Shown here piece after piece: positions 7,855 to 41,419 of a stretch of 64,000 bases of DNA. Position numbers and translations under genes: made by a program. Below the pieces are notes generated by a model. That model worked only from the letters and a program-made list of their open reading frames with translations. It did no database searches and was not told where the DNA came from. The number at the start of each line of letters is the position of its first letter. Within the stretch, counting starts at the first letter, position 1. Source of the stretch: Centruroides vittatus (taxonomy: Eukaryota); contig NW_027122708.1 in assembly GCF_030686945.1 (NCBI RefSeq), positions 5,802,248 through 5,866,247 of the forward strand, written 5' to 3'.

Positions 7855-8337
7855 TTACAATGCTATCATTAGTTTTTCAATGTCAATAGAATTTAGCACC
7901 ATAATGACTTCCTTTTGTAAATGATTGTTGTTGCGACATTCCTGTATGACCACTGCTGTTTCTAACCAATCTGACACTATTTGCATAAAATCTTGTAAAA
8001 ATGCTACAAGATCTGCTGCTGAAGGACTGTCTACACCTGGATTAAAAAAAATCAAACTGGTAGCTTTTCCTAAATTTCCAACTCTCCCTGTTCTACCAAT
8101 TCAGTGAACGTATTTTTGGATTGTTTTGGCAAGATCGCAGTTTATTACATGGCGGACATCTTTGATATGTAAACCTCTAGCTGCAACAGCCATGGCTACT
8201 AAGATCAACATTCTTCCTGTTCGGAAATTCATCACAGCTTCCTCTCGCTCACATTGTAAACGATCCATATATACTTGTAGAATAATTATTCTGAGACATA
8301 AAAAGATGCTATAAAATCTGCTGTTCTCTACCTGCAC
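7855..8337 (-). pseudogene. DEAD-box RNA helicase (DDX3/PL10/Vasa-like) C-terminal fragment with in-frame TGA
   Basis: The contiguous translation reads ..[103 protein letters not shown]. It carries the DEAD-box motifs V and VI (ARGLDI, HRIGRTGR) and a DDX3-like tail. The invariant Arg of HRIGRTGR is a TGA codon (TAC GTT CAC TGA ATT GGT), consistent with a CGA to TGA change. Confidence 0.7.
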
Positions 8338-8649
8338 TTAAATCAAACAACACAAACTTTTTAAGATGCAGTCTTTTTAAACTCAGGAAAAATCGAATAT
8401 TACGATTTATAACGAACAAACATAACCTAGAATGCTTTTTGGCATTCTATCCTATCAATCATCTTTATTAAAATACTAAAGTTAGGTAGTCAAATGCCAA
8501 CATGTTCGTGAGATCCAAATTTAAATCAAATTTTAATACTACATAAACTGTAACAAACAAAATTTTATTATACTTTCTCAGAGCAACTGTATACTTGTCG
8601 ACAGACGGACAAGGCAACGAACTTCCATGCGTTTTTTTTTACAAGTGTT

Positions 8650-9768
8650 GGCGCACAAACCATGTGGAGATCAGTACCTTGGCAACTGTGTCCGCTGTCT
8701 GGTCTGGTAATGGCATTGCCTCCACCCACCTTGAAAATCGGTCAATTGCGGTAAGTAGGTACCTCGATCCTTCCGAGAGTGGTAATGGACAGACTATGTC
8801 GATGTTGATGTGCTCAAGTCGTGAATTTGGGATGAGGAACTTCAACAGAGGTGCATGTGTATGGCGATGGATTTTCAACTTTTGGCAAGCTAAGCATGTT
8901 TGTGACCATGCCTGGCAGTCTTTTTTTTTTTTATATTAGGCCAAATGTATCTCTGAGTGATCAGTTTGGAAGTAGTACGAGCTCCTGGGTGCGAGAAGCT
9001 GTGAATGGCTGAAAACACTTCCTGTCAAAAACGTGGAGGTATGTCCGGTCTACAGTAACCAGTAGAGGCGTCACAGAACAGGGACTTTGTTGAATTTGGA
9101 AGGGGTAAATTTACTATTTTACAATTTGGGTTATTTTGCAATTCTAACAGTTAATCATCCTGTTGTGCATCTGCGATGGCTTCGTAGTTTATGGATGGTG
9201 TGCCGATGGTGTTTATGCGAGACAGTCTGCTACGACGTTGTCCCTGTGGATATATGGTGTAAGTCGGTCGAAAACTGTGACACATAGTCCAATTGTCAGA
9301 GTTGACAAGGTGACGCTTTGGCCAAATCTTGGAGGACAGCAAAGGTGAGGGGTTTATGTAGATAATAAATGGCCTCCCCTCCACCAGGTGTCAAAAATGC
9401 TTGATGGCGGAATAGATGGCTAGGAGCTCCCGGTTGTATGTGCTGTATTTCATTTGAGGCTTGGTGAGAGTTCTGAAGAAAAAACACAGGGTTGTTTAAC
9501 GCCATCGAGTTCTTCATGTAAGACAACTCCCATCGCAACATCTGACACACCCATGGTTAAGGAAAGTTTAGCCTCTGGTGCTGGAGTGGGCGAGCAGAGC
9601 AGCTCTGCTTAAGGCTTCTTTCATGTTGTTGAAGGCTCAGTTTGCTTCTTCAGACCAGACAAGAGGCTTGGTGATGCTTTTGGTATGACTGATTAACATG
9701 GCGTTAAGAGAAACCTGAAATGTAGCACATCCAGGGATGAACCTGTGGTAAAAGTTAATCATTCCAAG
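8650..9768 (-). mobile_element. LTR-retrotransposon pol remnant (Ty3/gypsy- or BEL/Pao-like): RT connection, RNase H and truncated integrase
   Basis: Reading the minus strand gives [17 protein letters not shown]...[19 protein letters not shown] (the FLG.vnYYRrFIp...W.ee...AF..lK motif). RNase H follows as VSDVAMGVVLHEELDGVKQPCVFFFRTLTKPQMKYSTYNRELLAIYSAIKHF. Integrase follows as [87 protein letters not shown]. The region contains stop codons. Confidence 0.7.
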
Positions 9769-10177
9769 GTCAATTAGTAAATTTTGTGCTTTCAAATCAT
9801 GATGAAGAATTCGACGTTGATGGCAATATACTATGGCTTGTAAAATCTGATGCACATCACTCTTGACAAGCATCTTATCCATATACTGCCCAGTAGGAAT
9901 ACTGTCCAAATATTTTTTTAGGTCCATTGATAAATATTGAAAAACCAAATGCAGCTGATTTTCTTGCATAAGTACATGCTGTAAATGAATAATATTGCTA
10001 TGATTCAGTTCTTTCAACAGTGAAATTTCTCTTATGCCTGTAGATGGAACACCGCCACCTTCAATTTTCAATCTTATTTCCTTTAATGCAACTAATTGTC
10101 CAGTTCTGTTTTTTCATTTGTATACCACTCCATATGTTCCTTCTCCAATATTCTCTACTTTTATATAATCATTCATT
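9769..10177 (-). pseudogene. CDK1 (cdc2)-like kinase N-terminal fragment, intronless, in-frame TGA, fused in frame to pol
   Basis: The translation reads [135 protein letters not shown]. It carries the glycine loop, a PSTAIRE-like helix, and the HRDLKPQNLLID motif of CDK1/2. There are no introns across about 136 codons. A TGA sits where Gly21 is expected. The frame then runs directly into the pol remnant ([16 protein letters not shown]). Confidence 0.75.
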
Positions 10178-10196
10178 TCATATCTCTAATTCTTGG

Positions 10197-11215
10197 GCAT
10201 GGTCACAAACATGCTTAGCTTGCCAAAAGGTGAAAATCCATCGCCATACACGTGTACTTCTGTGGAAGTTCCTCGTCCCAAATTCACGACTTGAGCACAT
10301 CAACATTGACATAGTCAGTCATCACTCTCAGAAGGATTGAGGTACCTTCTTATCTTAGCTGACCAATTTTCAAGGTGGGTGGAGGCAACGCCATTACCAG
10401 ACCAGACAGCAGACACAGTCACCAAGGCTCTGATCTCCACATGGTTTGTGCTCTTTGGTGTTCCAACGAAGATCACAATGGATCAGGGCAGACAATTTGA
10501 AAGCCAGTTGTTCAGATCCCTAAGCAACTACTTAGGCTTTCAAATCAGCCATACCACGGCCTACCACCCCCAAGCTAACAGGCTAATCGAGAGACAACAT
10601 CGAACTCTGAAATAGCCCTGTCAGAACATCTGCAACAGGTGACCCCATGGACTGCAACCTTGCTGCTCATCTTCCTAGGTTTATGCTCGGCCATCATGGA
10701 GGACATTGGAGCATCCCCAGCCAAGCTGCTGTACGGCACTCCATTACGATTACCAGGCGAACTTCTGCTGGATTCCCCAGTCATGGAGAAGATGGAGTTC
10801 ATGCAACAGCTGCAGTAATTCCTTCGTACGTTAAGACCGTCCCCAACAACTTGACATGGGAAGCGAACAACCTTCATTTCTGAACGGCTAACAGACTGTT
10901 TGCATGTCTTTGTGCTCAATCCAGTGGCACATTGTTCTCTTCGACCAGCCTATCTTGGCCCATACCGCAAAAAGTTTTTCAAAATCAATGTCGCGAGCTC
11001 TCCTAAAAGGGTATCATTAGATAGACTAAAACCTACATTCCTTCTGAATGAAGATGCCGCCACCAGAACTCATCCTACGAGCACGGTGACACCATCAGAC
11101 TGCCAACATACATCATCACCTGTCAAGACAACTGGAAGACAAACCTCATTAAGGCACATTATCTGACCAACCATACGTTTCCTGGATATGATACACTCGC
11201 CCACTAGGGGGAAGT
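10197..11215 (+). mobile_element. LTR-retrotransposon integrase remnant with a putative polypurine tract at its 3' end
   Basis: The translation carries the integrase catalytic core and C-terminal region (RNase H-like fold plus HPQ.NG.ER motifs): [128 protein letters not shown]...LLYGTPLRLPGELL...LRPAYLGPYRK...LDRLKPTFL. This is inverted relative to the integrase at 8650-8940, and homology to it begins exactly at 10197. A purine run CTAGGGGGAAG is followed by TGTGTAGGG, which may be a PPT followed by an LTR start. Confidence 0.7.
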
Positions 11216-11516
11216 GTGTAGGGCAGAGGGTGCCACCACATGACCTTCACCCTCTGACATCACTTTGCTCTCGGACTCCAATGAAAAGAGACTTTTTTGT
11301 TCTACGCCAACCCTTTAGAGTCAACAGTAGGGTTTCTCAAACAGGATCCCAAGATCCCAGTTGTTTTTAAACCTGGGAAATTCTTCTCATCCCAGAAAAT
11401 CCCACAAAATTCTTAAAAATTCACTTTTTTCTTATTTTGTGTTAAGGTTGAGGAAATTTTGCAAATAAAAAGTATAATTAACTCAAACCATCAGAATACA
11501 TTTACAGTAGAGCGTC

Positions 11517-11931
11517 GTTTATCCGAATCAATTAAGGACTGGGGTTGTTCAGATAACCGATTTTTTCAGATAACCGATTATGTATAAAAAAATGCATTAA
11601 CCTATCCTAAATGTTGAAATTTTTCTCCATTGCGTGTCGCTTCACGATGAATTTTTCTCCGTTGCATGTCGCTTCGTGTTGAATTATTGTCGATTTTAAG
11701 CCTAACGAAAATTTTTATAATAATAATCAAAGCTATTGTATCGTTAAAAATTATTTCTTTATTGTGTACAAACAAAATAAATATATTGAAAAATATAAAA
11801 ACAAAAAAATTATACTTTAAAAGTTAATCCAGTATCAATAAAGTTCGATTCAGCACGACACAGTCCGACTGGAACTCTTTCGGATAACTGACATTTCGGA
11901 TAACCGATTTTCAGATAACGACGCTCTACTG
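11517..11931. mobile_element. Tc1-like MITE (about 415 bp) nested in hAT-like copy A; TA TSD
   Basis: The left end reads TA|CAGTAGAGCGTCGTTTATCCGAA and the right end TTCGGATAACCGATTTTCAGATAACGACGCTCTACTG|TA. Internal GATAACCGATT subrepeats are present. Confidence 0.6.
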
Positions 11932-12099
11932 TATATTTATTAATTTTAAACCTACTTATTAGTTTTTTAAATTTTTGCTTGTTATGGCATGTCACAAATG
12001 GTCAATAATCAATATGTAGCTTATTTATGGCAGGACTCTCAAAATTCTTTACCAGTAATATCTGGAATAATTGTGCTTATGCTGTCTTAATTTTTAACC

Positions 12100-12354
12100 A
12101 TGCCCGGTAGCTTCAATAACTGCGTAACGCCAAGTTGCGCAAATTGGACAAGGATACAAACGAGTACGAAGTCTGCAAGTATGAAGTTTTTCTTCATAAA
12201 CTTGATTATCAAAGTCAAACGAACTGCCGAATTATTGGGCTATAAGCTTGATGTTTCTATTAAAGCAGCCGAGATAGACAAATCAAGAATACTAGAGAGC
12301 AAAAAAGTACTACAATCTCGAAAACGAACTAGAAATCTTCCAGACTACAGGTGA
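12100..12354 (+). CDS. Conserved 84-aa ORF carried by the hAT-like family (copy A); unknown function
   Basis: The ORF reads MPGSFNNCVTPSCANWTRIQTSTKSASMKFFFINLIIKVKRTAELLGYKLDVSIKAAEIDKSRILESKKVLQSRKRTRNLPDYR. It is open and similar in all three copies (see 39269-39523 and 49164-49445). Confidence 0.3.
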   Translation: MPGSFNNCVTPSCANWTRIQTSTKSASMKFFFINLIIKVKRTAELLGYKLDVSIKAAEIDKSRILESKKVLQSRKRTRNLPDYR

Positions 12355-13384
12355 AAAAACACACAACGTCTGCCTTCTCTTAAATGCATTAAACACAATT
12401 CCACTCACATCAATTGAATTGGAAAGGGCATTCTCGGTACCAAGACTTTTCATTACTAAAATAAGAATCAGATTGAGTAATTGGAGTATTGACCAGCTTT
12501 GCTTTTTAAAAACTTATTATAAAAAGTTTACAATAATATTTTGTATTAAGTTTTATTTGAAACACAAAAATTACCTTCTAATTACAGGTTTGATCTAAGT
12601 TCATTTTTTTTTTAAATTTTCAACTCAATTCAAAGCATTTTATTATTGTTGTATCAAACTTTAATAAATTTTTTCTATTTGTGAAAATTTCTACATAATT
12701 TAAAGGTAATCTTTAATATATATCTTACACAGCATTATTAATATGATTTTGGAGGTTGCAGAACATATTAAATTACTTTAAAAAATAAAAAAATAATTAT
12801 ATCATTTGATTTCAAGATATTTTGTCTATCTTAAAAATAATTAATTCTATCCCAGAATTTCCCGGGATCTCTAGAAACAGTTCTTTTATCCCAGAACAAG
12901 CAAAGGACTGGGAAATGAGAAACCGTAGTCAACAGCATCACAGATCTCGTATTTGTACAGTAACTATTGTAAATATCTCATAACCACGACAAATAAAGTA
13001 TATTATTTGCCTGGATCAGGGTCTCAGTTAATCCTAACCAACGAAAAACAAAGAACGCAGGACACATGGTCGAGGTCGACATGGACATCAGACAATGTAG
13101 GATCAAACCCAGGCCAATACTGCCTAGCATCAAAACATGTCGCGTATGGATTTTAGCCACGCCACTAAAGCAGTGAGCCAGATGTGATGATTAAAAAAGA
13201 AAAAACTTCAAAGACAGAAATAGAGGAGAAATACGTCAGCAGTCAAGTGATCTGCTGACTTCGAGCGAGGTCACGTGACACAATGTGCAAGCGTCCGCCT
13301 CCAATGTACTACTCCATGATATAAAGAAGGTTATGCAATGGTGGCTTCCACCATGCATAATTGAGAAAGAATTAGAGATCTGAA

Positions 13385-14065
13385 ATGAATGATTATATAA
13401 AAGTAGAGAATATTTGAGAAGGAACATATGGAGTGGTATATAAATGAAAAAAACAGAAGAACTGGACAATTGGTTGCATTAACGGAAATAAGATTGAAAA
13501 GTGAAGGTGGTGGTGTTCCATCTACAGGCATAAGAGAAATTTCACTGTTGAAAGAACTGAATCATAGCAATATTATTCGTTTACAGCATGTACTTATGCA
13601 AGAAAATCAGCTGCATTTGGGGTTAATGTTACCTATGGTAGCGAACATGGCGGCTCGTCTCTGAAACAGTCGGGATGCACGTTCTAACCTAACCTAACCT
13701 ATTCTAATAAATTACCATAATTATTGCCACCCAAATTATTACAATATGGATAATTTATTAAAATAGGTTAGGTTAGTATGTGTCCCCCCACTGTTTCAGA
13801 GATGAGACGCCATGTTTGCTACCATAGGTAACATTAACCACATTTGGTTTTTGAATATTTATCAATGGATCTAAAAAATATTCAGACAGTATTCCTACTG
13901 GGTAGTATATGGATAAGATGATTGTCAAGAGTAATCTGCATCAGATTTTACAAGCTATAGTATATTGCCATCAACGTCGAATTCTTCATCGTGATTTGAA
14001 AGCACAAAATTTACTAATTGACCTTGGAATGATTAACTTTTACCACAGGTTCATCCCAGGATGTG
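13385..14065 (+). pseudogene. Second copy of the CDK1-like/pol chimera fragment, interrupted by a MITE and frameshifted
   Basis: The copy reads [67 protein letters not shown], then a 219-bp insertion, then ...[53 protein letters not shown]. It shares the same TGA after GVVYK and the same CDK/pol junction as copy 1, and diverges from copy 1 beyond FIPGCA. Confidence 0.7.
13621..13839. mobile_element. Merlin-type MITE (219 bp, about 50-bp TIRs, 8-bp TSD) inserted in CDK1-like copy 2
   Basis: The left TIR is GGTTAATGTTACCTATGGTAGCGAACATGGCGGCTCGTCTCTGAAACAGT and its inverse lies at 13790-13839. The flanks are gCATTTGG at 13613-13620 and aCATTTGG at 13840-13847. Copy 1 (9769-10177) has an uninterrupted CTGCATTTGGTTTTT at this point. 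The TIR start matches the TIRs of the 5.4 kb Merlin element at 21392-26796. Confidence 0.7.
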
Positions 14066-20650: not shown

Positions 20651-20901
20651 TAGTGCCCACAGGGTGGAAAGAGTTAAAAAAAAAATAATACATTTTATGT
20701 ATTTAATTTTCTATGATTCTCGAACACAAATCGTGCTACTATTTAAACACTTGGCGTTTTTCCATCTGTATTTAGTTGATACGAGTATTAATACATGTTT
20801 TGGGCGATACCCCTCCTCAGTCAACTAAATATTAAAAAAGGTTATACATAAAATTCTTTTTACAAGACAATATTACACAGAAAAGCTATTTTACAAATAT
20901 A

Positions 20902-21257
20902 CACAGTGGACCTTCGTTATAGTGCTGCTCACTATACCGTGCGCTCAGTTATAGTGCAGACAATATTTGCAACGCAATAAGCTCAAACACGTTTATACAG
21001 GTCCAAGCGGCATTAGTGAGTAGCACATTTTATTGTTACTGCATATTGAGTAATTGTGTATGTATTGAGTTCCTGAATGTATTTTGAATAGTGTTTAATT
21101 ATTGTATGCATGATGAGTAAAAAAAAAGCTTACAGTGTGAAAGAAAAGCTTGACATTATTGCTAAAGTAAAGAGGTAAACCGCATTACACAGAGCGGGGC
21201 AGTATAACACGGGTGTTGTTTCCGGCCCAACATGCGCGTTATAACGGGGGTCCACTG
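20902..21257. mobile_element. Tc1-like MITE (about 355 bp) with TA TSD, present only in the left arm of the foldback
   Basis: The left end reads TA|CACAGTGGACCTTCGTTATAGTG and the right end CGTTATAACGGGGGTCCACTG|TA. The homologous position in the right arm (about 29800) is an uninterrupted ...CAAATATATACTTAAATG. Confidence 0.65.
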
Positions 21258-22215
21258 TACTTAAATGTATAAATTGCTTTGCAAGACTAAAATTGATAAA
21301 GAATCTAATGGTACAAGATATACACATGTATAAGGATGATATGTTTTTTACATCTGTCTAAAGAAATTTTACATACTTGGTTACAAATTTTGGTTAATGT
21401 TACCTTAGGTGCCAAGATGGCGGCGCTTCCAGTCGCCACATTGGATTAGTTGGAAACTGTGCAGTATGTGATACTTTGATAGTAGATCACGTGACGGCAA
21501 GATTCTAAGACCAGATGAAGAGGTTGCCCCCAAACTGTAAACCCCCCTGTGCAAGCATAAAAGTCAAAGGAACCATACCTCTATATGTGACCCTTCGCAA
21601 GATATAGCCCTGCAAAGATGCGCCTACGTCATTTCCAGTCACAACTCCATGCCCAAAAGGAACGCGTCACACGGCCAAATTTTTTTCTTGCTTTTTCCAC
21701 CTCTTAGTGTTTAAAAAAGTGCGCACTTCCCTCTCTTAGCCCCCCAACGCGCGCCTTGCCCTCCTGTACATGCCGCCGCCACTGTCTCCCCCTTGCACGC
21801 ACCCGCAGGCCAAGTCGCCCACCTGCAGTCGTCTGGAGTCACCACCTATTGCCTGTAAAGACAAATATCTATTATTATTTCAGCTCTTACCTGAGCAAAG
21901 ACTCAAACCCCCGTTCTGGCAGGCGCCAGTCCACTTCTCTCTGCACTGGCCCACCAGGTCACTTTGCCCAAAATATTTCAGAACTCATACTTGAGGCATG
22001 CAAGGCCAAGGAACACACTGCATGATGGGCCGTCCAGGCGGTCCCACCTCAGCCAGAGATGCAGTGTGCCTGACCACACGGCCCCACCTCCGCTGCAAAG
22101 TTGAAGCAGGCCGGCTGCAGGTCACATGACCATGGCACGGCCTACTGAAGTTTTATAAGCTTGTAGCTGCCTTGGTGCCGTTGTTCCTAGTTTTACAAGT
22201 GTTTACAGGTATTTG

Positions 22216-22416
22216 CAGTACACTCAAACCTGTTTTTGTGCGGTCTATTTTTGCGTGATTTTTTATTTGTGCGATTTGTTTTGTGTGATTTTTTGTGCGC
22301 GATATATGAATTTCAATCAAATTGGTATACTGCACAAAAATAATTGCACAAAACACATTCCACGTATAAAAAATCGCACAAAAAAAGACCGCACAAAAAC
22401 AGGTTTGAGTGTATGT
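22216..22416. mobile_element. Short MITE (about 200 bp), family with TIR CAGTACACTCAAACCTGTTTTTGTGCGGTC
   Basis: The TIR at 22216-22245 has its inverse GACCGCACAAAAACAGGTTTGAGTGTA at 22389-22416. The interior is a GTGCGATTTTT subrepeat. A family member lies at 30114-30632. Confidence 0.6.
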
Positions 22417-22433
22417 TTACAATTTTTACAGTA

Positions 22434-23057
22434 CAGTAGAGCGCCGTTAACCCACGGTGATTGGGGTCCAAACTGCAGAAAGTGTATGAAAGGCAGTTTT
22501 GAGTCATACTTCCGAAAATTTTCACTTTTAAATTTTACCCCATTTTTGAGGGTCTCAAAAAGTTCACATGTAGTCATTTCGGGGGGCCTGTATCTCGCAA
22601 AGGGTCACTCGTACAGCCATGGTTCAATATTTCAGCTGCAGCTTAGGTGGTCCGCGGCTGAAATATTTTTTGATAATGCATAAATTACAATAAATGAAGT
22701 GATTTACGTTATTCTCAAATTAAAAATCATACACTGTACTTTAAATACAAGTTGATTTTTTGCGGATTTACCGCAGATTAACTTAGTAGCATAGTAAGGT
22801 ATGAATCAATTACAATGGCGGCATCCATAACGCTGACACCAGGCGTGAATAAAACAGATTAGCATTTGAATTTCATTGTAAGTTATTTTATTATTTATTG
22901 ATAAATATAAGACTAATCTTCTGTAAATACCTCTTTGAAGTTATAAGCCAGCATTTAAATATTTAATCCGCGGTAGTGCAAAATTGGGATCCAAGCTTTT
23001 TCTGCGGCTTCAGCCAATTCGCGTGTTACTGACCTGCGGCTTAACGGCGCTCTACTG
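22434..23057. mobile_element. Tc1-like MITE (about 620 bp), TIR CAGTAGAGCGCCGTTAA
   Basis: The left end reads TA|CAGTAGAGCGCCGTTAACCCACGG and the right end GCGGCTTAACGGCGCTCTACTG. A 120-bp internal segment (22505-22630) is repeated directly at 25935-26055. Confidence 0.55.
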
Positions 23058-23126
23058 TCTTTGCAGTATTTTACAATCAGTATTTTACAGTATTTGGAGT
23101 ATTTGTATTTGGCCTGTATTTGTATA

Positions 23127-24777
23127 ATGCCATTCACGTGTGACATGTCAGCGTCTCCCGTTTTGGATCCCGACGACATATTTGAAAACATAACATCGTA
23201 CGCATTTCGTACCTACCTCCCCACCGAAGAGGCCGCCCAGAAATTTTGTCATCTTGTGGGGCTCGTGCCACATCCAGACCTCACCGGTTCCATTCCACTG
23301 TGCCCTCGTTGTGGAGGTAAGCATCGCTTGATTCCTGCATGTACACTACAGTACAGGAACAGCCAATATTCGCGGCGCTACTTTTCTAAGCCGTTTCAAT
23401 GTGTTTGTCATAATTTTGCAGGCCTGATGCAAAAGGAACTGGCTCCACCTGAGAGGTTCGATTTATCTACTGCTGCGAAAAACTGAAAGAAAAGAAAACA
23501 GTTTGACGACGGACAGGCGGCACCTTCCAGAGCGCCGTGTGCACCGGTAGCCTGTCATGTACCCACAATACATTCTTCGACGGGGCGAGACTTTCAGCGC
23601 AAGTATGATATTACAGTCGATCACCGATTTCTGTAATTTGATCGTGCTGATTACGATGACGTATCTATAACAGATGTGTTTTGTTTGTATTTTACAGGTG
23701 CTGACTTTGATATATTCATGGGTCATGCAGCTGCCAGTCACCATTCCCTCGGAGCAATGTCGCGTGGCCCTTGTGACAGCGGTAAATTGGTACAACTTCT
23801 GCTGGGAAGTTGCGGAAGTTTTTGTCTCCCATGCTCAGAACATCCAGCTTGGCGGTGAAGGATTGCACATCGAGGTGACCGTCAACCCACGTTGCTGACT
23901 TTGCCGAAATGTCTGTCTATATTACTTTTTTTTTTTTCTTTCTTTCAGATCGATGAGACCTTCACCCGGAGGCGAAAATACAACCGCGGCTGCGTAGGTG
24001 TAGGCACCCAAATTACAATATTTAGTGCCTACTGTTGGGAAACGTGAGAGCTGATGCACTGGCATGTAAGTAGTAGCGAAACATTACTTCCTTTTATTGT
24101 TTAGTTATCGTGGAAAACACTGTCCGGCAGACATTGGCGCATTTTAGACGTGTTATATTTTCTTGTATTCTTTCAGGTGGACAACAAAAGCAGACGTGTT
24201 CTGTGGAGCCACATGCTCAGATACATCGCTCCAGATTCCATCAGTTTCCAACAGCATGGCCCAGTATCGCGGTTGTGCAGCTTTTTTGGGCTTCTCTGGA
24301 CATAACATCGTCAACCACAGTCGGCGGGGCCCCGGGAGGTAAGAAAGCATGAAACTGTGCTATGTGCTAATTGAAAGAAATGGACGGGCATTATGGAGAA
24401 GCGACATTTATCTGTTTTTTCTTTTTTTTTGTAGATTCGTAGACACAGATGATCCCGAGGCCCATACTCAAAACATTGAGTGCAGAAATAGCTGGCTGAA
24501 GAAGTCCATAAAGTCGCTCCACACGGACAGGAGCCTGCAAAGCTATACCTGCAGTTACGTGTACAGGACGCAGTTCCTGTCCCAGTGGCCAACAACATTG
24601 GCCAAATTCTGGCAGTTTCTACAGGACAGACATCATGGCCGTCTACCTGGGTCCCGGTCGCCAGGGTCTCGAACTCCAGACGATCGGTGCGCCTGTGGAT
24701 CAACATCTGCTGCCAGACATGCCCTATTTCGATGTTCCCGTGCAAGAGGGCGACAAAGAGGAACGGCAGGGGGATGA
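23127..24777 (+). CDS. Merlin/IS1595 (ISXO2-like) transposase gene with spliceosomal introns; at least partly degenerate
   Basis: Recognisable exons lie at 23127-23316 (MPFTCDMSASPVLDPDDIFENITSYAFRTYLPTEEAAQKFCHLVGLVPHPDLTGSIPLCPRCGG; donor G|GTAAGC), 23698-23874 (VLTLIYSWVMQLPVTIPSEQCRVALVTAVNWYNFCWEVAEVFVSHAQNIQLGGEGLHIE; acceptor TTTTACAG, donor GAG|GTGACC), 23949-23993 (IDETFTRRRKYNRGC), about 24172-24336 (..VFCGATCSDTSLQIPSVSNSMAQYRGCAAFLGFSGHNIVNHSRRGPGR; donor AG|GTAAGA), and 24431 to about 24777 (FVDTDDPEAHTQNIECRNSWLKKSIKSLHTDRSL...). The exon-1/exon-2 join and the 23994-24171 interval need frameshifts to stay in frame, so this copy is probably a pseudogene. Confidence 0.55.
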
Positions 24778-25220
24778 CGACCGCCCAGTGAGTAGTGCAG
24801 CCTGTGTGTAGTGCACGCAACCAAATGATACTTCTTGGCGGATGTGAAACCTGGATTATGTGATTTTTCAGACAACATTGAGCGCCACCACCACCACCAC
24901 CTTCGTCATCGACCCCCAGGACCTAGCCGAGGCAGGGACCAGTGGCCTCACCCCGTCCTCACCTACAGAACATCAGGAACAGGCTAGGCGTCGCCAGGTA
25001 GCGAGAGGACGACGTCGTGGGAGAAGCAAGAGGAGACGCTGTTAAAGGTGAGTGCAGAATCTGTTTTCTTGCCCTTTTCCATCGGTAGTTAGAATGTGTT
25101 AGAGATAGCAAAATAGGGTTTAGATGGAAGCAGAATAGAAGACATCTGATGTTCGAAAAGCATTGCTCTTTGCAGCTTTGAGTGTTAACGCAAGGAAAAG
25201 TTTTTATGTCGAGGATTTCG

Positions 25221-25308
25221 TTAAAGGCTTGCCCAATGTGGTTGGTATGGAATGGGTGCCTAATCTCAACATCCATTCTATACTAACGACATTGGGCAAG
25301 CCTTTTAA
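25221..25308. other. 88-nt hairpin of about 33 bp with G:U wobbles and a 14-nt loop (pre-miRNA-like); function unknown
   Basis: The stem TTAAAGGCTTGCCCAATGTGGTTGGTATGGAATGG pairs across the loop GTGCCTAATCTCAA with CATCCATTCTATACTAACGACATTGGGCAAGCCTTTTAA. All mismatches in the inner stem are G:T, meaning G:U pairs in RNA. Confidence 0.3.
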
Positions 25309-25332
25309 CCAACAAGAAGAATGCCCAGCAAG

Positions 25333-25361
25333 CAGTGAAGCTTGTGTGGTGTGTGTGTGTG

Positions 25362-25395
<34 letters not shown>

Positions 25396-25408
25396 ATATA
25401 TATATATA
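25333..25408. repeat. (GT)n followed by (AT)n compound microsatellite
   Basis: The sequence is gtgtggtgtgtgtgtgtgttgtgtgtgtgtgtgtgtgtgtgtgtgtgtggatatatatatatatatag. Confidence 0.9.
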
Positions 25409-27832
25409 TATAGTGCGCGTGACTGAAGGATACTTGTATGCGAAACCTGGATTATATGCGATTGTTCGGACACCATCTTTGTCGTTGTCGAACTCCAGGA
25501 CATAGCCGAGGAGGCGGCGGTGACCGGTGACCTCACCCCGTTCTACACAAGATCGGAAACAGGCTAAACGTTGTCAGGTAGCGAGAGGAGGAGACTCTGT
25601 CGAAGGTGAGTGCAGGATCTGTTTTCTTGGCCTTTTCAGTAGTTAGAGCATGTTAGAGATAGCGCGAAATAGAAGAAGCGCACTCTATTTATGTAGGAGC
25701 AGCGTCGGAGAAAGCGTTGCCTAATTAGTCTTGTTAATCGGGCTTTTCTTTGGCCTTTGCCGACGAGTATCGTTAGAATAGGGCTTGCTGCCTGTTAAAC
25801 GCGCGACAGGCTTAGCGGAGAGAGCGGAGCGAGTTCCGACGGCACTCCCCGGAAGTGGCACCCTCGTGTTTAGGGGGTTTTTAGGAGTCTCTAGTAAGTT
25901 GTAACAGAAAGCGTTCTAAATGCAATTTTTAGTTGTACTTGTGAAAATTTTCACTTTTAAATTTTACCCCATTTTTGAGGGTCTCGAAAAGTTCACATAT
26001 AGTCATTTTGGGGGACCTGTATCTCGCGAAGGCTCGCTCGTACAGCCATGGGTTCATTAGACTTTTTTATTCCTATCAGTATGATCTACAGCTCTGTTAA
26101 GGTCCCAACCGCGTCATTCGGACCTGTAATTGTGCCGAATAGGTTAAGTTAGTACAAGCATCCCCACTGTTTCAGAGACGAGCTGCCATTTCGCTACCAT
26201 AGATAACATTAACCCTAATTTTCAAGCACATTTATAGGCATTATCATTATCATGGTCCTAACCTAATTTGAAATATTCAATTTCCATTAGCTAATAGAAT
26301 TTATGGGCTGGTACAACCTAACCAAAATTCCATCGGAACTTAATTCTACAAAACTCATTGTTGCAGTATTAGCAAAAAACTAAAAAAAAAGTTAAAATTT
26401 AACAACAAATTTTGATGATATTTAATTCAACTTTTCAAATACTATCGTTTAAGAAATATATATTTACCTATTTAACTTCTTGGAAAAAAATATTGTAAAA
26501 AAAGAAATCAAATGTTCCACTACACATACAACGCAACACCGTCAGTGTAGTCTACCTACATGTTAATTTGCATAATTCCACGATAAACAACCATCTAACG
26601 TCATCTAACTCCATACAACGTCAAATCTAACAAATTTGCATATCCGTTCACGATCACATTTTACGTCACGTTCAACGTATTTTCAAATTTCGTCACACTA
26701 TTAACAGATAGCTCCCTCTATCATCAGTACCTCGCGTGACTCTATTTCGAGATTACCAGAAGCGCCGCCATCTTGGCACCTAAGGTAACATTAACCGAAA
26801 TTTTTAATACTGCTTTTTAATCTTAGAAAAATTTTTTAAAAAAAGATTTTTATAAATATTACATGCCTTAATTGAAAAAATACTTGCTTTGTAATCTTTA
26901 TAAAAATCTTTTTTAAAAAACTTTTCTAAATATTACATACCTTAATTTTTTCAATCTTTCTATTTTTGTTAGTGAGATTCCGAATCCGCTTTTTCTAAAA
27001 ACAGGCTACGCCAACTCGAAATTTCCGTACATCTAGTTTGTAATAAGCAACCAATATATAAATACATAAACAGTATACTAGTATCAAATGGACATTACCT
27101 GATGTAAAAGTTTTTTAACTAAAAATTTTTAAGAATTGTTCATTGGATCCTTTTGTGCTTAGATGTGATATAATTTGTTTTTTAGCATTTACAAATAAAA
27201 TAACAAAGTATACTAGTTTGTGTTTAACAAGTAAGTCTTACTTTACTAATTAGACATCGTTACACGACATTAATAAGACTTGCTTCCGCTTTTCGTGGTA
27301 ATGCGGTCTAATACAAATTTGCATATCTTTATGAAATACAGTAATTTGTTTCACAATTTTCGTTTTCACGATCATATGTTTCGATGTTTCACGAAGCATA
27401 GTTAAACCAGTTTTTATTTTAATATTAAAATGTATTTTACAAGACATTTAACCAGTTTTCGTTTATTTTTATGCTCAAATTTTTATTAATATAATTTTTA
27501 GCTTTAAGATTTCAAAACTTTCTTTAAATTTTTTACTATATATGTTTTTTCTTTATGTAAAATTTCAACATTAGACTTATCGATATTACAGTTATTCGTT
27601 AAACAGTGATCGTGGAAAACGGAATTTAATCTATTGTATTTTAGGCCAGCGATGTGTTCTTTTAATCTTATACTTGATTTTCGTCTTGTTTCTCCTATAT
27701 AAGATTAAAAGAACACATCGCTGGCCTAAAATACAATAGATTAAATTCCGTTTTCCACGATCACTGTTTAACGAATAACTGTAATATCGATAAGTCTAAC
27801 GTTGAAATTTTACATAAAGAAAAAAACATATA

Positions 27833-29029: not shown

Positions 29030-30113
29030 TATAGTAAAAAGATTTAAAGAAAGTTTTATTAATATAATTTTTAGCTTTTAAGATTTCAAAACTTTGAGCA
29101 TAAAAATAAACGAAAACTGGTTAAATGTCTTGTAAAATACATTTTAATATTAAAATAAAAACTGGTTTAACTATGCTTCGTGAAACATCGAAACATATGA
29201 TCGTGAAAACGAAAATTGTGAAACAAATTACTGTATTTCATAAAGATATGCAAATTTGTATTAGACCGCATTACCACGAAAAGCGGAAGCAAGTCTTATT
29301 AATGTCGTGTAACGATGTCTAATTTGTAAAGTAAGACTTACTTGTTAAACACAAACTAGTATACTTTGTTATTTTATTTGTAAATGCTAAAAAACATATT
29401 ATATCACATCTAAGCACAAAAGGATCCAATGAACAATTCTTAAAAATTTTTAGTTAAAAAACTTTTACATCAGGTAATGTCCATTTGATACTAGTATACT
29501 GTTTATGTATTTATATATTGGTTGCTTATTACAAACTAGATGTACGGAAATTTCGAGTTGGCGTAGCCTGTTTTTAGAAAAAGCGGATTCGGAATCTCAC
29601 TAACAAAAATAGAAAGATTGAAAAAATTAAGGTATGTAATATTTAGAAAAGTTTTTTAAAAAAGATTTTTATAAGATTAAAAAGCAGTATTAAAAATTTG
29701 TATGTAAAATTTCTTTAGACAGATGTAAAAAACGTATCATCCTTATACATGTGTATACCTTTAAAATTGATAAAGAATCTAATGGTACTACTGTACGTCT
29801 CGTAAAACAATTTATACATTTAAGTATATATTTGTAAAATAGCTTTTCTGTGTAATATTGTCTTGTAAAAAAGAATTTTATGTATAACCTAATTTAATGT
29901 TTAGTTGATTGAGGAGGGGTATCGCCCGAAACGTGTATCAATACTCGTATCAACTAAATAAAGATGATAAAACGCCAAGTGTTTAAATAGTAGCACGATT
30001 TGTGTTCCAGAATCACAGGAAATTAGAAAACACGGTTTCAGAAAATTGGGAAATTTAACTTTAATAGAAAGTTTTTTAAATAAATACCTATGGAACCTAC
30101 CAACTGAATTTTG

Positions 30114-30632
30114 CAGTACAGTCAAACCTGTTTTTATGCGCTCTTTTTATGTGCGATTTTTATTTGTGCGATTTTTTTAATGCGAATTTTTAATTTGTGC
30201 GGTATAGTTGGCGACTAGTCTCGTGCGATTCGTCATGTCTTACGTTGACTTATTATAGCTAAATAAACTTATTATAGCATAAATGCACTTATTATAGTAA
30301 TATTATTGCATGAATATGCGAAAAATGAAATAATTTACTTTTTAAGTCAACAAAACACCACCTGGACAAAAATATGTAAAACAGACGATAGACCAGACGA
30401 TGCAGTCAAGTGCTGACATCTGTTGTCAATAAATTCTATTTCGTACGGTTTTGAGTTATTTTCTATGTGAGACTTTTTTATGCGGTCCCTGTTGACCGCA
30501 TAAAAGAATATTTTTTAAATTGTGTTGCTAAAACTATTATTTACAGCCATTCGTGAAGTTTTGTGAGATTTTTTTTTATGCGTTTTTTTTAATGCGGTCC
30601 CTATCCCCCGCATAAAAACAGGTTTGACTGTA
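30114..30632. mobile_element. MITE (about 520 bp) of the CAGTACAGTCAAACCTGTTTTTATGCG family
   Basis: The left TIR CAGTACAGTCAAACCTGTTTTTATGCGC has its inverse GCGCATAAAAACAGGTTTGACTGTA at 30606-30632. An internal copy of the TIR core lies at 30470-30505, and GTGCGATTTTT subrepeats are present. Confidence 0.6.
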
Positions 30633-38100: not shown

Positions 38101-38467
38101 AAAAATGAGAGGTTTTTTTATTTGGTAAAAAGGAGAAAAAGTAGAATTTGAGTTCAAACTTGGTACACAAGTTTTAAATCCGCAAAAGCCACTTGGAGCT
38201 AATACAACTCCTAGACAAAAAATTAGAATATTCACCTAACTGAAAGTTTAGAGCACATTTTCTCATGAACAACACAGAGTACGAAACTTTTTTTGACCCT
38301 ATATAAACAATGTCTATGTATATTTATTATACCCATTAATCAGACAAATTAACTCAAACGTTTTTTGTTACAAATGGAAATGAAATGACAAAAAAAGTAA
38401 AAAATAGAACAACAGTTTGACCATGACAAAAAAAAAATTAGAATATTAGCTAAATGTGGGTTTAAAT

Positions 38468-38882
38468 ATAGGAAATACAGGTATACCTCACCTTACGTCG
38501 GTAATTGGTTCCTGGAGACGCGACGTAAGTCGAATTTACTTATGTAGTAAGTCGAACTACGGTGGAAAATGCCAATAATGAGCACTTAAAGACCGCTAAA
38601 CAAGACGACAACACAAACACAGATGTTTTCATGTTTCGTTCTCTAGGATTTATGATTATTATATTAACATTTACTGTAAATGTACATATTTTAATATGAT
38701 CTTATTTGCTTTTAACGCTTTTCTAGTGATATTACTACTTCAATATTTGTGGCGGACGGACGTAAAGTCGAATAAAATGACTTAAACTTGATTTTTATTT
38801 TTCCATGTACTTTTTTCACAAACGACGTATAATCGAGAACGACGTAACTCGAGGTATACCTGTACAATAAAATAAACTTATT
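38468..38882. mobile_element. Tigger-type MITE (about 415 bp), TIR CAGGTATACCTC..., TA TSD, nested in the Tc1-like element
   Basis: The left end reads TA|CAGGTATACCTCACCTTACGTCG and the right end CGACGTAACTCGAGGTATACCTG|TA. CGACGTAAGTCGAA subterminal repeats are present. The TIR resembles the canonical Tigger/pogo CAGGCATACCTCG terminus. Confidence 0.7.
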
Positions 38883-38940
38883 TTGTTGCGTCGCCTTTTG
38901 CCATAATCAGTGCTCGCAATCTGTCGGGCATGGTGCGGAT

Positions 38941-40097
38941 TAGGATTTCTCAAACGTGATCCCAGGATCCCGGTTATTTTTTTTAACCCGGGAAATTCCG
39001 CAAATTTCTTAAAAATTCACTTTTTTCTTATTTTATATTAAGGTTGAGGAAATTTTGCAAATAGAAAGTATAATTAACTCAAACTGTCAGAATACATTTG
39101 TATTTATTAATTTTAAACCTACTTATTAGATTTTTCTAATTTTTCAATTGTTATGGCATGTCACAAATGGTCAATAATCAATACGTAGCTTATTTATGGC
39201 AGGACTCTCAAAATTCTTTACCAGTAATATCTGGAATAATTGTGCTTATGCTGTCTTAATTTTTAACCATGCCCGGTAGCTTCAATAACTGCGTAACGCC
39301 AAGTTGCGCAAATTGGACAAGGATACAAACGAGTACGAAGTCTGCAAGTATGAAGTTTTTCTTCATAAACCTGATTATTAAAGTCAAACGAACTGCCGAA
39401 TTATTGGGCTATAAGCTTGATGTTTCTATTAAAGCAGCCGAGGTAGACAAATCAAGAATACTAAAGAAGAAAAAAGTACTACAATCTCGAAAACGAACTA
39501 GAAATCTTTCAGGATACAAGTGAAAAACACATATTTGTCTTCTCTTAAATGCATTAAACACGATTCCAATCACATCAATTGAATCGGAAAAGGCATTCTC
39601 GGTAGCAAGACTTTTCATTACTAAAATAAAAATTAGATTGAATGATCGGAGTATTGACCATCTTTGGTTTTCAAAATCTTATAATACAAAATATTGTAAA
39701 TTTTTGTTTTATTTAAAAACGAAAATTACTTTTTAAGTTAGAAGTTTGATCGAAGTTCATTTTTTAAAAATTTTTAACTCAATTCAAAGCATTTTGTTGT
39801 TGTTGTTGTATGCAGTTTCCAGCAAACTTTAAATTTTTTCTATTTGTGAAAATTTCTATGTAATTCAAAGGTAATTTTTAATATATATCTTACATAGCAT
39901 AATTAATATGATTTTGGAGGTTACAGAACGTATTAAATTACTTTAGAAAACGAATAATAATTATATCATTTGATTTCATGATATTTTGTATATCTTAAAA
40001 ATAATTAATTTTGTCCTGGGATTTCCGGGATCCCAGGACAATCAGTTTTATCCTGGAATCCTGGGACAAGCAAAAGACCGGGAAATGAGAGACCCTA
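38941..40097. mobile_element. hAT-like non-autonomous element, copy B; 8-bp TSD GTGCGGAT / GTGGGGAT
   Basis: The termini are TAGGATTTCTC...GAGAGACCCTA. The flanks match at 7 of 8 positions. It is inserted in the Tc1-like element and contains the conserved ORF at 39269-39523. Confidence 0.6.
39269..39523 (+). CDS. Conserved 84-aa ORF of the hAT-like family (copy B)
   Basis: The ORF reads MPGSFNNCVTPSCANWTRIQTSTKSASMKFFFINLIIKVKRTAELLGYKLDVSIKAAEVDKSRILKKKKVLQSRKRTRNLSGYK. It differs from copy A at about 6 residues and has no stops. Confidence 0.3.
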   Translation: MPGSFNNCVTPSCANWTRIQTSTKSASMKFFFINLIIKVKRTAELLGYKLDVSIKAAEVDKSRILKKKKVLQSRKRTRNLSGYK

Positions 40098-40109
40098 GTG
40101 GGGATTAAT

Positions 40110-40990
40110 GCTTCGCATTCGTTTCTGGTGATGCAGTTCCAAATGTGTCGAATGTACGTCACTAGTTCCGCTTTAAAAGTTGATCACCGTTCATTAAGTC
40201 GTCATTTCGTGACTCCCCACAAAACTTCAATGGATTTAAGTCTGAGGAATTGCTTGGCCAACGCACGATTGCAATCTGTCGTTCTTGTAACCAACGTATC
40301 GTTGACTTCGCTGTATGAGAGGATGCTCCATCTTCTTGAAATAGAAATGTTTTCTCAATTAAATCCTCTGTCGATGGTATCATAAATGTCTCTAAGATGT
40401 CTAGATATGTCTGTGCATTGACACGTTCCCGAAGAATGCACAGTTGTCCTACGCCGTTAGCACTCATGCATCCCCAGATCATGACAGACGATGCAAACTT
40501 CACGGATCTCTTCATACAGTCCTTTTCGAAGGTTTCCAGCCTCTGGTTGTTCTTTTCCAGGTTTCCTTTCCAGCCTCTGGTTGTTCTCCATACACGTGGG
40601 CCTTGGTCACTACAGGAGAGACAAAACAGGGATTCGTGACTGAAAAGAACGTTATTCCAGTCGTCTTGTTCCACATGAGCCTTTCTCTGTACCATCTGAC
40701 ACTCGCTTGTCGTTGCTTTTTCGTTAGAGATGGCTTTGCCTTGGGAACACGGAAGTTGAAGTGCAAGTCGTGCAACCTTTGGCATCTACTAACGTTCACT
40801 CCAGTTGCTCTGCATTGTGCGTGTAAGTGTTTAACGCTCTTAAAGCGGTTTTGCACGACAATCCTCAAGTTTCTCACATCTCTCTCAGTCGTTGATCGTT
40901 TACGTCCACATTTCTGGCGTTTATTAGTTAAAAGTTGAACACTGTTTTGTTTCAGTACTCTAGAGACTGTTGGCTGCAAGCATTTTACAT
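40110..40990 (-). pseudogene. Tc1-family transposase (HTH plus DDE), frameshifted
   Basis: Two overlapping frames read ...RKRSTTERDVRNLRIVVQNRFKSVKHLHAQCRATGVNVSRCQRLHDLHFNFRVPKAKPSLTKKQRQASVRWYRERLMW... and WNNVLFSHESLFCLSCSDQGPRVWR...MIWGCMSANGVGQLCIL...LFQEDGASSHTAKSTIRWLQERQIAIVRWPSNSSDLNPLKF. These carry the Tc1 D,D34E catalytic signature. Confidence 0.7.
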
Positions 40991-41419
40991 AATTCGCAAT
41001 TTATTGTTGTTTTCCTACTTTGTACAAGGCTATGATAATACCTTTAGTTCTGTCACTGATGTCGCGCTTACGCTCCATGTTGTACTGTTATACTGCTCTG
41101 CTCAGCAATATGGAAATTTGCATTACAATATAGTTTTTCATGGGTGTTTGTTTGGCTGTTTTCGCTAATATTCTAATTTTTTTTTTTTTTTGTCATGGTC
41201 AAACTGTTATTCTATTTCTTTTTTTTTGTCATTTCATTTCCATTTGTAACAAAAAAACGTTTGAGTTAATTTGTCTGATTAATAGGTATAATAAATATAC
41301 ACAGACATTGTTTATATAGGGTCAAAAAAAGTTTCGTACTCTGTGTTGTTCATGAGAAAATGTACACTAAACTTTCAGTTAGGTATATATTCTACAAGGG
41401 TGGATCCGAAAAAGGTTAC

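Follow-up and report, generated by a model that had tools for sequence, protein, structure and literature searches.

The 5,405-bp unit at 21392-26796 of the analyzed window, a 64,000-nt stretch of the Centruroides vittatus genome, is a broken copy of a Merlin cut-and-paste DNA transposon, an ordinary and already-known kind of mobile DNA. Based on comparison with transposase-bearing relatives, this one copy is probably a composite, non-autonomous Merlin transposon, in which a decayed core (21496-26136) lies within a shell related to GGTTAATG-type MITEs. The outer 38-bp TIRs most likely belong to that MITE family, which is itself of a related Merlin type (GG ends, 8-bp duplications).

Assignment to the Merlin superfamily, already proposed by the sequence-only reading, was supported by the profile searches. 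PF12762 (DDE_Tnp_IS1595) was the sole credible Pfam match to the conceptual window protein (E = 1.2e-5; 25.7 bits at a cutoff of 27; profile positions 5-150 of 153), intact paralogues sharing 64-85% identity exceeded the cutoff with 39.8-46.4 bits, and the NCBIfam model IS1595 (NF033547) matched the window protein with E = 3.3e-8. The N-terminal cysteines C59, C62, C81 and C103 (CPxC...C...C) were invariant in alignment A3, and no Pfam zinc-finger model, Zn_Tnp_IS1595 included, was significant for the window protein or its paralogues. The nearest proteins originate from Centruroides scorpions; identity to P0001, an intact C. vittatus model of 450 aa, is 85%, and the P0001 cluster comprises at least six full-length C. 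vittatus models, XP_067121638, XP_067124405 and XP_067128014 among them. TIRs starting with 5'-GG, a Merlin trait (PMC8101967), were found at the outer (GGTTAATG...) and inner (GGCAAGATT...) ends as well as in the relatives (GGTAAGATTT... or GGCA(A/C)(G/A)ATT...).

The transposase gene was reconstructed by tblastn of P0001, splice sites and paralogue structure (Table 1). As the sequence-only reading had seen, it is split by canonical introns; six were found, all of them GT..AG (intron 6: 24788-24871). Their positions equal those of four C. sculpturatus paralogues, splicing of which at these introns rebuilt the annotated proteins exactly, and intron 1 was precisely lost in one C. sculpturatus copy, L005. 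The hallmark motifs CPRCGG, LIYSWV, WYNF, IDETFTRRRKYNRG, VNHS and HTQNIE, listed in that reading, were all recovered in frame translations. D184 (IDET) and E290 (NIE) were invariant in alignment A3; all seven relatives have the second catalytic Asp (as SD or TD), whereas the window copy has Asn at this position, next to a frameshift, so that the D-D-E triad present in the family is lost here. Compared with P0001, the spliced reading frame is interrupted by three frameshifts (exons 2, 5 and 6) and two in-frame TGA stops (exons 2 and 4). Transposase cannot be produced from this copy. The element had been described as apparently autonomous, which is wrong for the window copy; it had also been judged probably dead from at least two frameshifts, a verdict that stands with greater damage than supposed. 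With GTGAGA at 24045 as an alternative donor, exons 4 and 5 would be linked with neither stop nor frameshift; this donor was rejected because the peptide would lose ELMxWHVDNKSRRVLWSHMLRYIAP, which is conserved in all paralogues.

Table 1. Features of the Merlin-type unit and associated elements (window coordinates).
Feature	Position	Strand	Evidence or remark
Foldback arms	20704-21391 and 26797-27484 vs 29088-30025		inverted-repeat comparison
Left 8-bp target-site duplication CAAATTTT	21384-21391	+	same as single 8-mer of empty arm
Outer left 38-bp TIR, GGTTAATG type	21392-21429	+	inverted match to 26759-26796, 0 mismatches
Outer left arm (shell), 104 nt	21392-21495	+	alignment A2: L005 homology only from 21496
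Inner left Merlin terminus GGCAAGATTCTAAGACCAGATGAAGAGG (starts GGCAAGATT...), decayed	21496-21523	+	aligns with true L005 left TIR GGCAAGATTCTAGGACAAATG...
Left subterminal region	21527-21645	+	BLAST matches in the two arms of L003, L005, L006; motif CCTTCGCAAGATA at 21592-21604
Nested foldback MITE, 191 bp, TA/TA flanks, Tc1/mariner-Stowaway type	22221-22411	.	inverted-repeat comparison
Nested 624-bp element, perfect 17-nt TIR CAGTAGAGCGCCGTTAA	22434-23057	.	motif scan
Transposase pseudogene, 7 exons	23127-25045	+	tblastn of intact C. vittatus protein P0001, splice sites, paralogue structure
Pseudogene exons 1-4	23127-23316, 23422-23602, 23698-23874, 23949-24065	+	
Pseudogene exons 5-7	24177-24338, 24435-24787, 24872-25045	+	
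Diverged tandem duplicate (intron 6, exon 7, 3' UTR start)	25409-25670	+	source 24830-25116
Native 3' core region	25604-26136	+	collinear with L005 11248-11793, where L005 ends
Subterminal block in native 3' region	25905-26051	+	
Inner right terminus ...CCGCGTCATTCGGACCTGTAATTGTGCC (ends ...AATTGTGCC)	26109-26136	+	
Internal MITE-type arm, ends GGTTAATGTTATC (reverse complement)	26137-26214	-	83-89% identical to both 219-bp MITE arms
544-nt AT-rich segment, 31% GC	26215-26758	.	matches nothing in relatives or rest of window
Outer right 38-bp TIR	26759-26796	-	perfect partner of 21392-21429
Right 8-bp duplication copy GAAATTTT	26797-26804	+	7/8 match to left; first base differs
Empty target site, single CAAATTTT	29693-29700	-	partner foldback arm, element absent
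219-bp GGTTAATG-type MITE, 79-nt arms 87% identical	13621-13839	.	flanks GCATTTGG (13613-13620) / ACATTTGG (13840-13847)

Further elements have accumulated inside the unit. The nested 191-bp foldback MITE has a related copy at 30110-30206, and a second member of the 624-bp element's family was found at 11505-11931, its TIRs alone being common. The tandem duplicate near the 3' end of the gene shows approximately 82% identity to its source, is preceded by a (GT)n(AT)n microsatellite (~25340-25412) and is absent from L005. A 147-nt repeat (22476-22622 vs 25905-26051) was considered as a Merlin subterminal direct repeat and rejected, since its first copy sits within the independent element with 17-nt TIRs.

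The 38-bp TIRs previously reported at the ends of the unit were confirmed without mismatch, and the 38-mer occurs exactly twice in the window (0 copies expected by chance, 100 shuffles). An 8-bp target-site duplication, (C/G)AAATTTT, with an empty site in the opposite foldback arm had likewise been reported; its length and the empty site (...CATAC AAATTTT TAATAC...) were corroborated, the two flanks matching at only 7/8 positions. Such a duplication with a single-copy empty site agrees with the 8- or 9-bp target-site duplications of Merlin/IS1595 elements. The foldback arms are 92-99% identical, and the insertion is therefore regarded as fairly recent. The filled arm carries 8 additional nt (TTGGTTAC) beside the left duplication that are absent from the empty arm.

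The outer TIRs had been interpreted as the native transposon ends, and this is contradicted by the relatives. Homology of the fetched transposase-bearing relatives to the window begins at 21496 and ends at about 26136 (26136-26138 for L005), and each of the five with a preserved terminus (L003, L005, L006, L007 and L008) has it at the inner position. By nucleotide sequence, L005 is nearest (83-87% identity); its terminus is GGCA(A/C)(G/A)ATTCTAGG..., with its own TIRs matching at 26/28 positions, and the termini of L003, L006 and L008 read GGTAAGATTTACCC. Both L003 and L008 represent complete elements, flanked by perfect 8/8 duplications (GTAATTGG and GTAAAATG, respectively). Different termini in other copies, which the sequence-only reading had itself named as evidence against it, are thus largely what was encountered: the TIRs bounding the unit are not the family's own termini, since the relatives end at inner, type-C termini. 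L001 and L002, which share a 99.7% identical gene segment, were discarded as further copies with ends, as their common 2.4 kb lacks Merlin TIRs.

Within the window, the inner left and right termini match each other at 18/28 positions, compared with 38/38 for the outer TIRs, which fits retired versus working ends. No 8-bp duplication was found around the inner termini (CACGTGAC vs GAATAGGT), and duplications are also absent at the type-C ends of L005 and L006, which in C. sculpturatus are bordered by pieces of other copies. In L003-type elements, a second terminus-like motif lies approximately 150 nt inside the right end, after TCACGTGACC, and CACGTGAC stands directly 5' of the inner left terminus of the window; for this reason, repeated terminus-like sites may be a native feature of the long arms instead of relics of nesting. 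Moreover, outer GGTTAATGTTACC and inner-type GGTAAGATTTACC are identical at 9/13 bases, indicating that the families are related and that shell and core may share an origin.

The affinities of the shell lie with short, core-free elements. Beyond the TIR, the outer left arm showed no homology to the transposase-bearing relatives in BLAST comparisons, whereas the TIR consensus of about 38 nt recurs in elements lacking the core, namely 13621-13839 of the window, L006 9022-9162 and L004 11970-12040; the L006 MITE, from C. sculpturatus, is flanked by a 7/8 duplication. The 219-bp element at 13621-13839 qualifies as a MITE, being short and non-coding, with TIRs, a 7/8 flanking duplication and its own empty site in a partner arm (9945-9952, minus strand). 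It had been called cognate to the large element on the grounds of a shared 13-nt terminus and duplication length. Both features and the relatedness hold, the 13-nt terminus being found at both MITE ends; the sharing extends beyond 13 nt, with approximately 30 of 39 aligned positions in common with the outer TIR. Its closest match is the internal arm 26139-26214 (83-89% identity), and it has nothing in common with the core, its termini matching those of the core at 9/13 over the first 13 nt. The segment 26139-26214 was rejected as a complete nested MITE, as it represents one arm only, with no second GGTTAATG end within the element. Screening metagenome and prokaryote genome collections with the TIR consensus yielded 0 matches, as expected of an animal repeat. 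The locus has no bearing on the function of host genes, except that a duplicated copy of a kinase-like exon is interrupted by a MITE.

On the proposed composite reading, the unit would have been cut and pasted as a whole via its outer TIRs, with a Merlin transposase acting in trans; C. vittatus has full-length models belonging to that protein cluster. Repair of a staggered 8-bp cut would have left the duplication. The shell may have been gained through nesting of the core within a MITE, and a later rearrangement, e.g., a deletion between directly repeated left TIRs, could account for the extra MITE arm at 26137-26214. Given the absent duplication at the inner termini, this nesting need not have been a clean insertion. 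A further-reaching version, in which ends were exchanged and a Merlin core with disused termini moved as a passenger between related MITE TIRs, giving rise to a composite family, is put forward tentatively and considered possible, though not probable.

The most serious competitor, in line with the sequence-only reading, treats the unit as one Merlin element and the 38-bp TIRs as its native ends; the GGCAAGATT.../...AATTGTGCC sites would be internal transposase-binding repeats in long arms with several sites of this kind, and the short GGTTAATG elements internal-deletion derivatives. It would explain why the left 250 nt are collinear with 25970-26214 in reverse complement (outer terminus, TGAAAC.GTG, inner motif, AAAAGTC..GAACC, CCTTCGCGAGATA), and it draws on the second terminus-like motif within L003-type arms, the 9/13 identity of outer and inner termini and the resemblance of the MITE arms to the element's outer-type arms. 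However, collinearity with the left arm stops at 26214 and not at 26796, the arm of the right TIR (26215-26796) has only 38 nt in common with the left arm, and the two sides of the shell differ strongly in length (104 nt left, 660 nt right). Together with the inner ends of all five terminus-keeping relatives, two of them with perfect duplications, these observations render a single element rather unlikely.

Less probable still, and a minor alternative to the composite, is stepwise nesting at this site, whereby a non-autonomous GGTTAATG-type element of approximately 0.76 kb would have generated the AAATTTT duplication on entering the foldback arm and the core would have landed inside it later, without the 5.4-kb unit ever having moved in one piece. 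What the empty site records is the absence of 21392-26796 from the partner arm; being equally compatible with movement of the unit and with local nesting, it cannot separate the two. C. sculpturatus Merlin copies, moreover, often lie inside other elements, as at the type-C ends of L005 and L006. Against this, the 92-99% identity of the foldback arms speaks for a fairly recent insertion, but the core looks older than the arms, given its 18/28 inner TIRs, the missing end duplication, the ~82% internal duplicate and the two nested elements; these traits could already have been present in a dead donor. Finally, a domesticated, host-co-opted Merlin-derived gene, suggested by the conserved multi-intron structure, the paralogues with RefSeq gene models and the TIR-less, nearly identical L001/L002 segment, is highly improbable and already contradicted for the window locus, which is a pseudogene enclosed by TIRs and duplicated flanks, has an empty site and belongs to a multicopy family including L003 and L008 with TIRs and perfect duplications.

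Merlin elements were described by Feschotte in 2004, as summarized in PMC8101967, where 48 Merlin sequences are listed for Centruroides sculpturatus; their occurrence in that species is thus already published. The window element shares with the superfamily the DDE_Tnp_IS1595 domain, 5'-GG TIRs, the 8-bp duplication and an animal host, and with some families, for which very imperfect TIRs as well as internal tandem repeats are described (PMC8101967), these features too. It differs in being a dead copy with two nested sets of Merlin-type termini and in its six-intron transposase gene, conserved across paralogous scorpion subfamilies; introns are not mentioned in the Merlin survey PMC8101967. Bacterial IS1595/IS1016 elements resemble it in the homologous DDE domain, 8-bp duplications and N-terminal cysteine motif, whereas the eukaryotic host, the introns, the much greater length, the long subterminal arms and the lack of a match to Pfam's Zn_Tnp_IS1595 model set it apart.

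In pairs of MITEs and autonomous elements, e.g., mPing with Ping/Pong in rice or Stowaway with mariner-like elements, non-coding elements depend on a transposase acting in trans. Here, too, short elements agree with a coding family in TIRs and duplication length, but MITE-type arms flank a coding element with different inner ends of its own, and the MITEs consequently need not be its deletion derivatives. In composite transposons (Tn5/Tn10) and maize Ac/Ds macrotransposons an outer pair of ends mobilizes a larger segment, and the IR/DR arms of Sleeping Beauty each contain two transposase-binding sites. From its sequence, the window unit may be likened to either arrangement; its arms are, by contrast, asymmetric, with an outer-to-inner spacing of 105 nt on the left and approximately 78 nt when counted from 26214.

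The value of these results lies mainly in annotation. The locus represents a dead copy of the P0001-cluster Merlin family and provides clean Merlin 8-bp duplications verified by empty sites. Centruroides RefSeq models of this cluster named 'uncharacterized protein' are Merlin transposases, and those with readable termini sit in Merlin transposons. Transposon curation that equates the outermost TIR pair with the ends of the family can go astray: in the nearest relatives, the ends lie further inward, by approximately 100 nt on the left and 660 nt on the right. If the exchange of ends proposed above is true, MITE shells could rescue and re-mobilize dead autonomous elements in scorpion genomes and, together with the six-intron gene and the loss of intron 1 in L005, Centruroides Merlins would represent a useful case for separate evolution of transposase and transposon ends.

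The element at 21392-26796 is bounded by the 38-mer GGTTAATGTTACCTTAGGTGCCAAGATGGCGGCGCTTC, which is present in the window in two exact inverted copies (21392-21429 and 26759-26796, 0 mismatches) and had 0 matches in 100 shuffles. The 8-mers flanking these outer terminal inverted repeats (TIRs) are CAAATTTT (left) and GAAATTTT (right). The empty partner arm of the surrounding inverted duplication reads uninterruptedly ...CATAC-AAATTTT-TAATAC..., with one CAAATTTT at 29693-29700, and the locus is a textbook pair of filled and empty sites. Both the inverted 38-bp TIRs and the empty site described in the sequence-only reading are therefore real. In the filled arm, eight additional bases, TTGGTTAC (21376-21383), adjoin the duplication on its left and are absent from the empty arm; they match TT|GGTTAA, the junction of duplication and TIR, at 7/8 positions and could be a footprint left when an earlier insertion was excised, or else templated filler.

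The Merlin/IS1595 motifs reported previously were all found in frame translations, and profile searches supported the superfamily assignment. Within Pfam, DDE_Tnp_IS1595 was the only credible match of the conceptual protein (E = 1.2e-5; 25.7 bits, below the 27-bit cutoff, spanning nearly the whole profile), and the NCBIfam IS1595 transposase was matched with E = 3.3e-8. The protein database search returned scorpion matches, such as an intact 450-aa Centruroides vittatus 'uncharacterized protein' (P0001, 85% identical); C. sculpturatus protein models were 64-72% identical, and intact Centruroides relatives exceeded the Pfam cutoff (39.8-46.4 bits). These matches assign the window to a Centruroides-like scorpion. 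The element is a new, uncurated-looking member of Merlin, a known superfamily of which 48 sequences in C. sculpturatus were already recorded in a published survey (PMC8101967).

The gene is split by GT..AG introns, as had been proposed. In four C. sculpturatus loci, splicing of seven exons over six such introns reproduces the annotated proteins exactly (exon lengths of 181-193, 185, 174-177, 117, 161, 337-343 and 81-84 nt; the annotated model of locus L003 ends inside exon 6), and the exon boundaries in the window match. Between copies, exons are somewhat more conserved than introns, e.g., 86% vs 80% for the window and the C. sculpturatus locus L005. The latter (KZ494065.1, 9270-9285) lacks intron 1 precisely at the exon-exon junction TGCGGAG|GCAATATG and retains the remaining introns. 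This provides indirect evidence for genuine splicing of intron 1 and suggests that a copy of a DNA transposon lost an intron by way of cDNA.

The window copy itself cannot encode a transposase, in agreement with its earlier classification as probably dead: compared with P0001, it carries frameshifts in exons 2, 5 and 6 and, in exons 2 and 4, TGA stops in place of Lys and Arg codons, and the second catalytic Asp, invariant in seven relatives, is replaced by Asn. Since the cluster of P0001, defined at 90% identity or more, contains six or more C. vittatus models of full length (446-504 aa), supply of transposase in trans is plausible in this lineage. Between the two copies of a duplicated exon 7 region, an 83-bp hairpin (25223-25305), whose arms of 17 nt read AAAGGCTTGCCCAATGT, was observed together with a (GT)n(AT)n microsatellite (25337-25412), and these may mark a rearrangement point.

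The proposed autonomous element with native 38-bp TIRs was not supported by comparison with eight C. sculpturatus loci (L001-L008), among which no 38-bp TIR bounding a transposase-bearing copy was found; relatives with a kept terminus end at an inner position instead. The complete elements L003 and L008 are flanked by GTAATTGG and GTAAAATG, respectively. L005, the nearest nucleotide relative (83-87% identity), possesses TIRs matching at 26/28 positions (GGCA(A/C)(G/A)ATTCTAGGACAAATGTAGCAAA, at 8360 and 11791), and its homology to the window has exact limits, at GGCAAGATTC (21496) on the left and at AATTGTGCC (26136) on the right. These inner termini agree at just 18/28 positions, compared with 38/38 for the outer TIRs. 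Outside them lie 104 nt on the left and 660 nt on the right, the latter comprising an internal arm (83-89% identity with the 219-bp MITE arms, 13621-13839), 544 AT-rich nt without a match to any sequence tested, and the perfect right TIR. Alignment of the outer left and right arms, the internal arm, both MITE arms, L004 and L006 revealed a TIR consensus of about 38 nt common to all GGTTAATG-type arms.

The 219-bp MITE was likewise supported: the identical 13-nt terminus stands at each of its ends, its arms are 79 nt long, its flanks are GCATTTGG and ACATTTGG, and a second inverted duplication holds, in the partner arm, its empty site with a single GCATTTGG at 9945-9952. The mismatch between the duplications falls, for both elements of the window, on the base adjoining the right end, which is treated as chance; in relatives elsewhere the 8-bp duplications are either perfect or mismatched at a different position. 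The MITE splits a kinase-like exon copy (13590-13880) on one arm; the unsplit partner ORF (9637-10071, minus strand; Pfam Pkinase, E = 2e-20) continues into unrelated sequence and is therefore probably part of a gene that was captured or duplicated. Short (CCTAA/TTAGG)n runs, an arthropod telomere-like pentamer, occur in MITE arms just internal to the 38-nt TIR. Furthermore, the window contains a Tc1/mariner-type element and an AT-rich repeat family of about 1 kb in three direct copies (11380-12865, 38976-40029, 48926-49920).

Coordinates of features in the window and in C. sculpturatus loci
Feature	Sequence	Position	Remarks
Inverted duplication around element	window	20704-21391 + 26797-27484 vs 29088-30025	arms 92-99% identical
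Transposase exons 1-4	window	23127-23316, 23422-23602, 23698-23874, 23949-24065	boundaries as in C. sculpturatus loci
Transposase exons 5-7	window	24177-24338, 24435-24787, 24872-25045	boundaries as in C. sculpturatus loci
Internal arm	window	26137-26214	78 nt, first piece of right shell; ends GGTTAATGTTATC (reverse complement)
Telomere-like pentamer runs	window	13680-13700, 13765-13780, 26140-26155	
Tc1/mariner-type element	window	38224-41394	143-nt inverted repeats 38224-38366 and 41252-41394, 96% identity
Degenerate Tc1/mariner-type transposase ORF	window	40162-40785	minus strand; Pfam DDE_3, E = 4e-9
Complete element	L003	about 8153-12861	termini GGTAAGATTTACCC...; perfect 8-bp duplication
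Complete element	L008	7285-10893	termini GGTAAGATTTACCC...; perfect 8-bp duplication
Second terminus-like motif	L003; L006; L007; L008	about 12720-12745; 11348-11371; 10549-10572; 10710-10733	
Type-C ends abutting Merlin fragments	L005; L006	8300-8360 and 11792-11930; 7973-8101	
141-bp intron-1 MITE	L006; L007; L008	9022-9162; 8262-8402; 8244-8384	

Several further features were observed at these loci. L003-type elements hold a second terminus-like motif, GCCACAATTTACCCTGCGAATGAG, about 150 nt internal to the right end and preceded by TCACGTGACC, and in the window the inner left terminus (21496) comes directly after CACGTGAC; such motifs may be repeated transposase-binding sites. In L005 and L006, inner-type (type-C) ends directly adjoin pieces of other Merlin copies (exon 6, intron 6 or exon 7) and lack matching 8-bp duplications, which may reflect self-insertions or aberrant rearrangements among copies. 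Three L003-type transposase genes carry, within intron 1, the same 141-bp GGTTAATGCTACT... MITE (8-bp flanks GCTATCTA/GCTATCCT in L006), a nested insertion inherited by this subfamily. Moreover, L001 and L002 (both 9702-12096) share, on two scaffolds, a 99.7% identical 2,395-bp segment with the whole 7-exon transposase gene, its borders without Merlin TIRs and its flanks unrelated. Segmental duplication or capture by another element may account for this segment, or it may be a candidate for domestication.

It is proposed that the transposase-bearing core (21496-26136) would be an old Merlin copy with retired ends of its own, the ends working at the last insertion having been supplied by a related MITE family, and that the composite would have been mobilised in trans as one unit. 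A serious alternative is that the family natively ends in the 38-bp TIRs and that the inner motifs are binding sites belonging to the interior of its long arms, as the left 250 nt are collinear with the reverse complement of 25970-26214, right arms of the L003 type hold the second terminus-like motif, and outer and inner termini are 9/13 identical. However, all sampled relatives with a kept terminus end at the inner position, and the arm with the perfect right TIR has just 38 nt in common with the left arm. Stepwise nesting at this locus, instead of movement of the composite, is also compatible with the empty site, which by itself does not discriminate. We think that the composite moved as a unit: decayed inner TIRs, the lack of an inner duplication, two additional nested elements and an internal duplication (about 82% identity, missing from L005) give the core an older look than that of the surrounding inverted duplication, whose arms are 92-99% identical. 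The value of this finding is modest and lies chiefly in transposon annotation.
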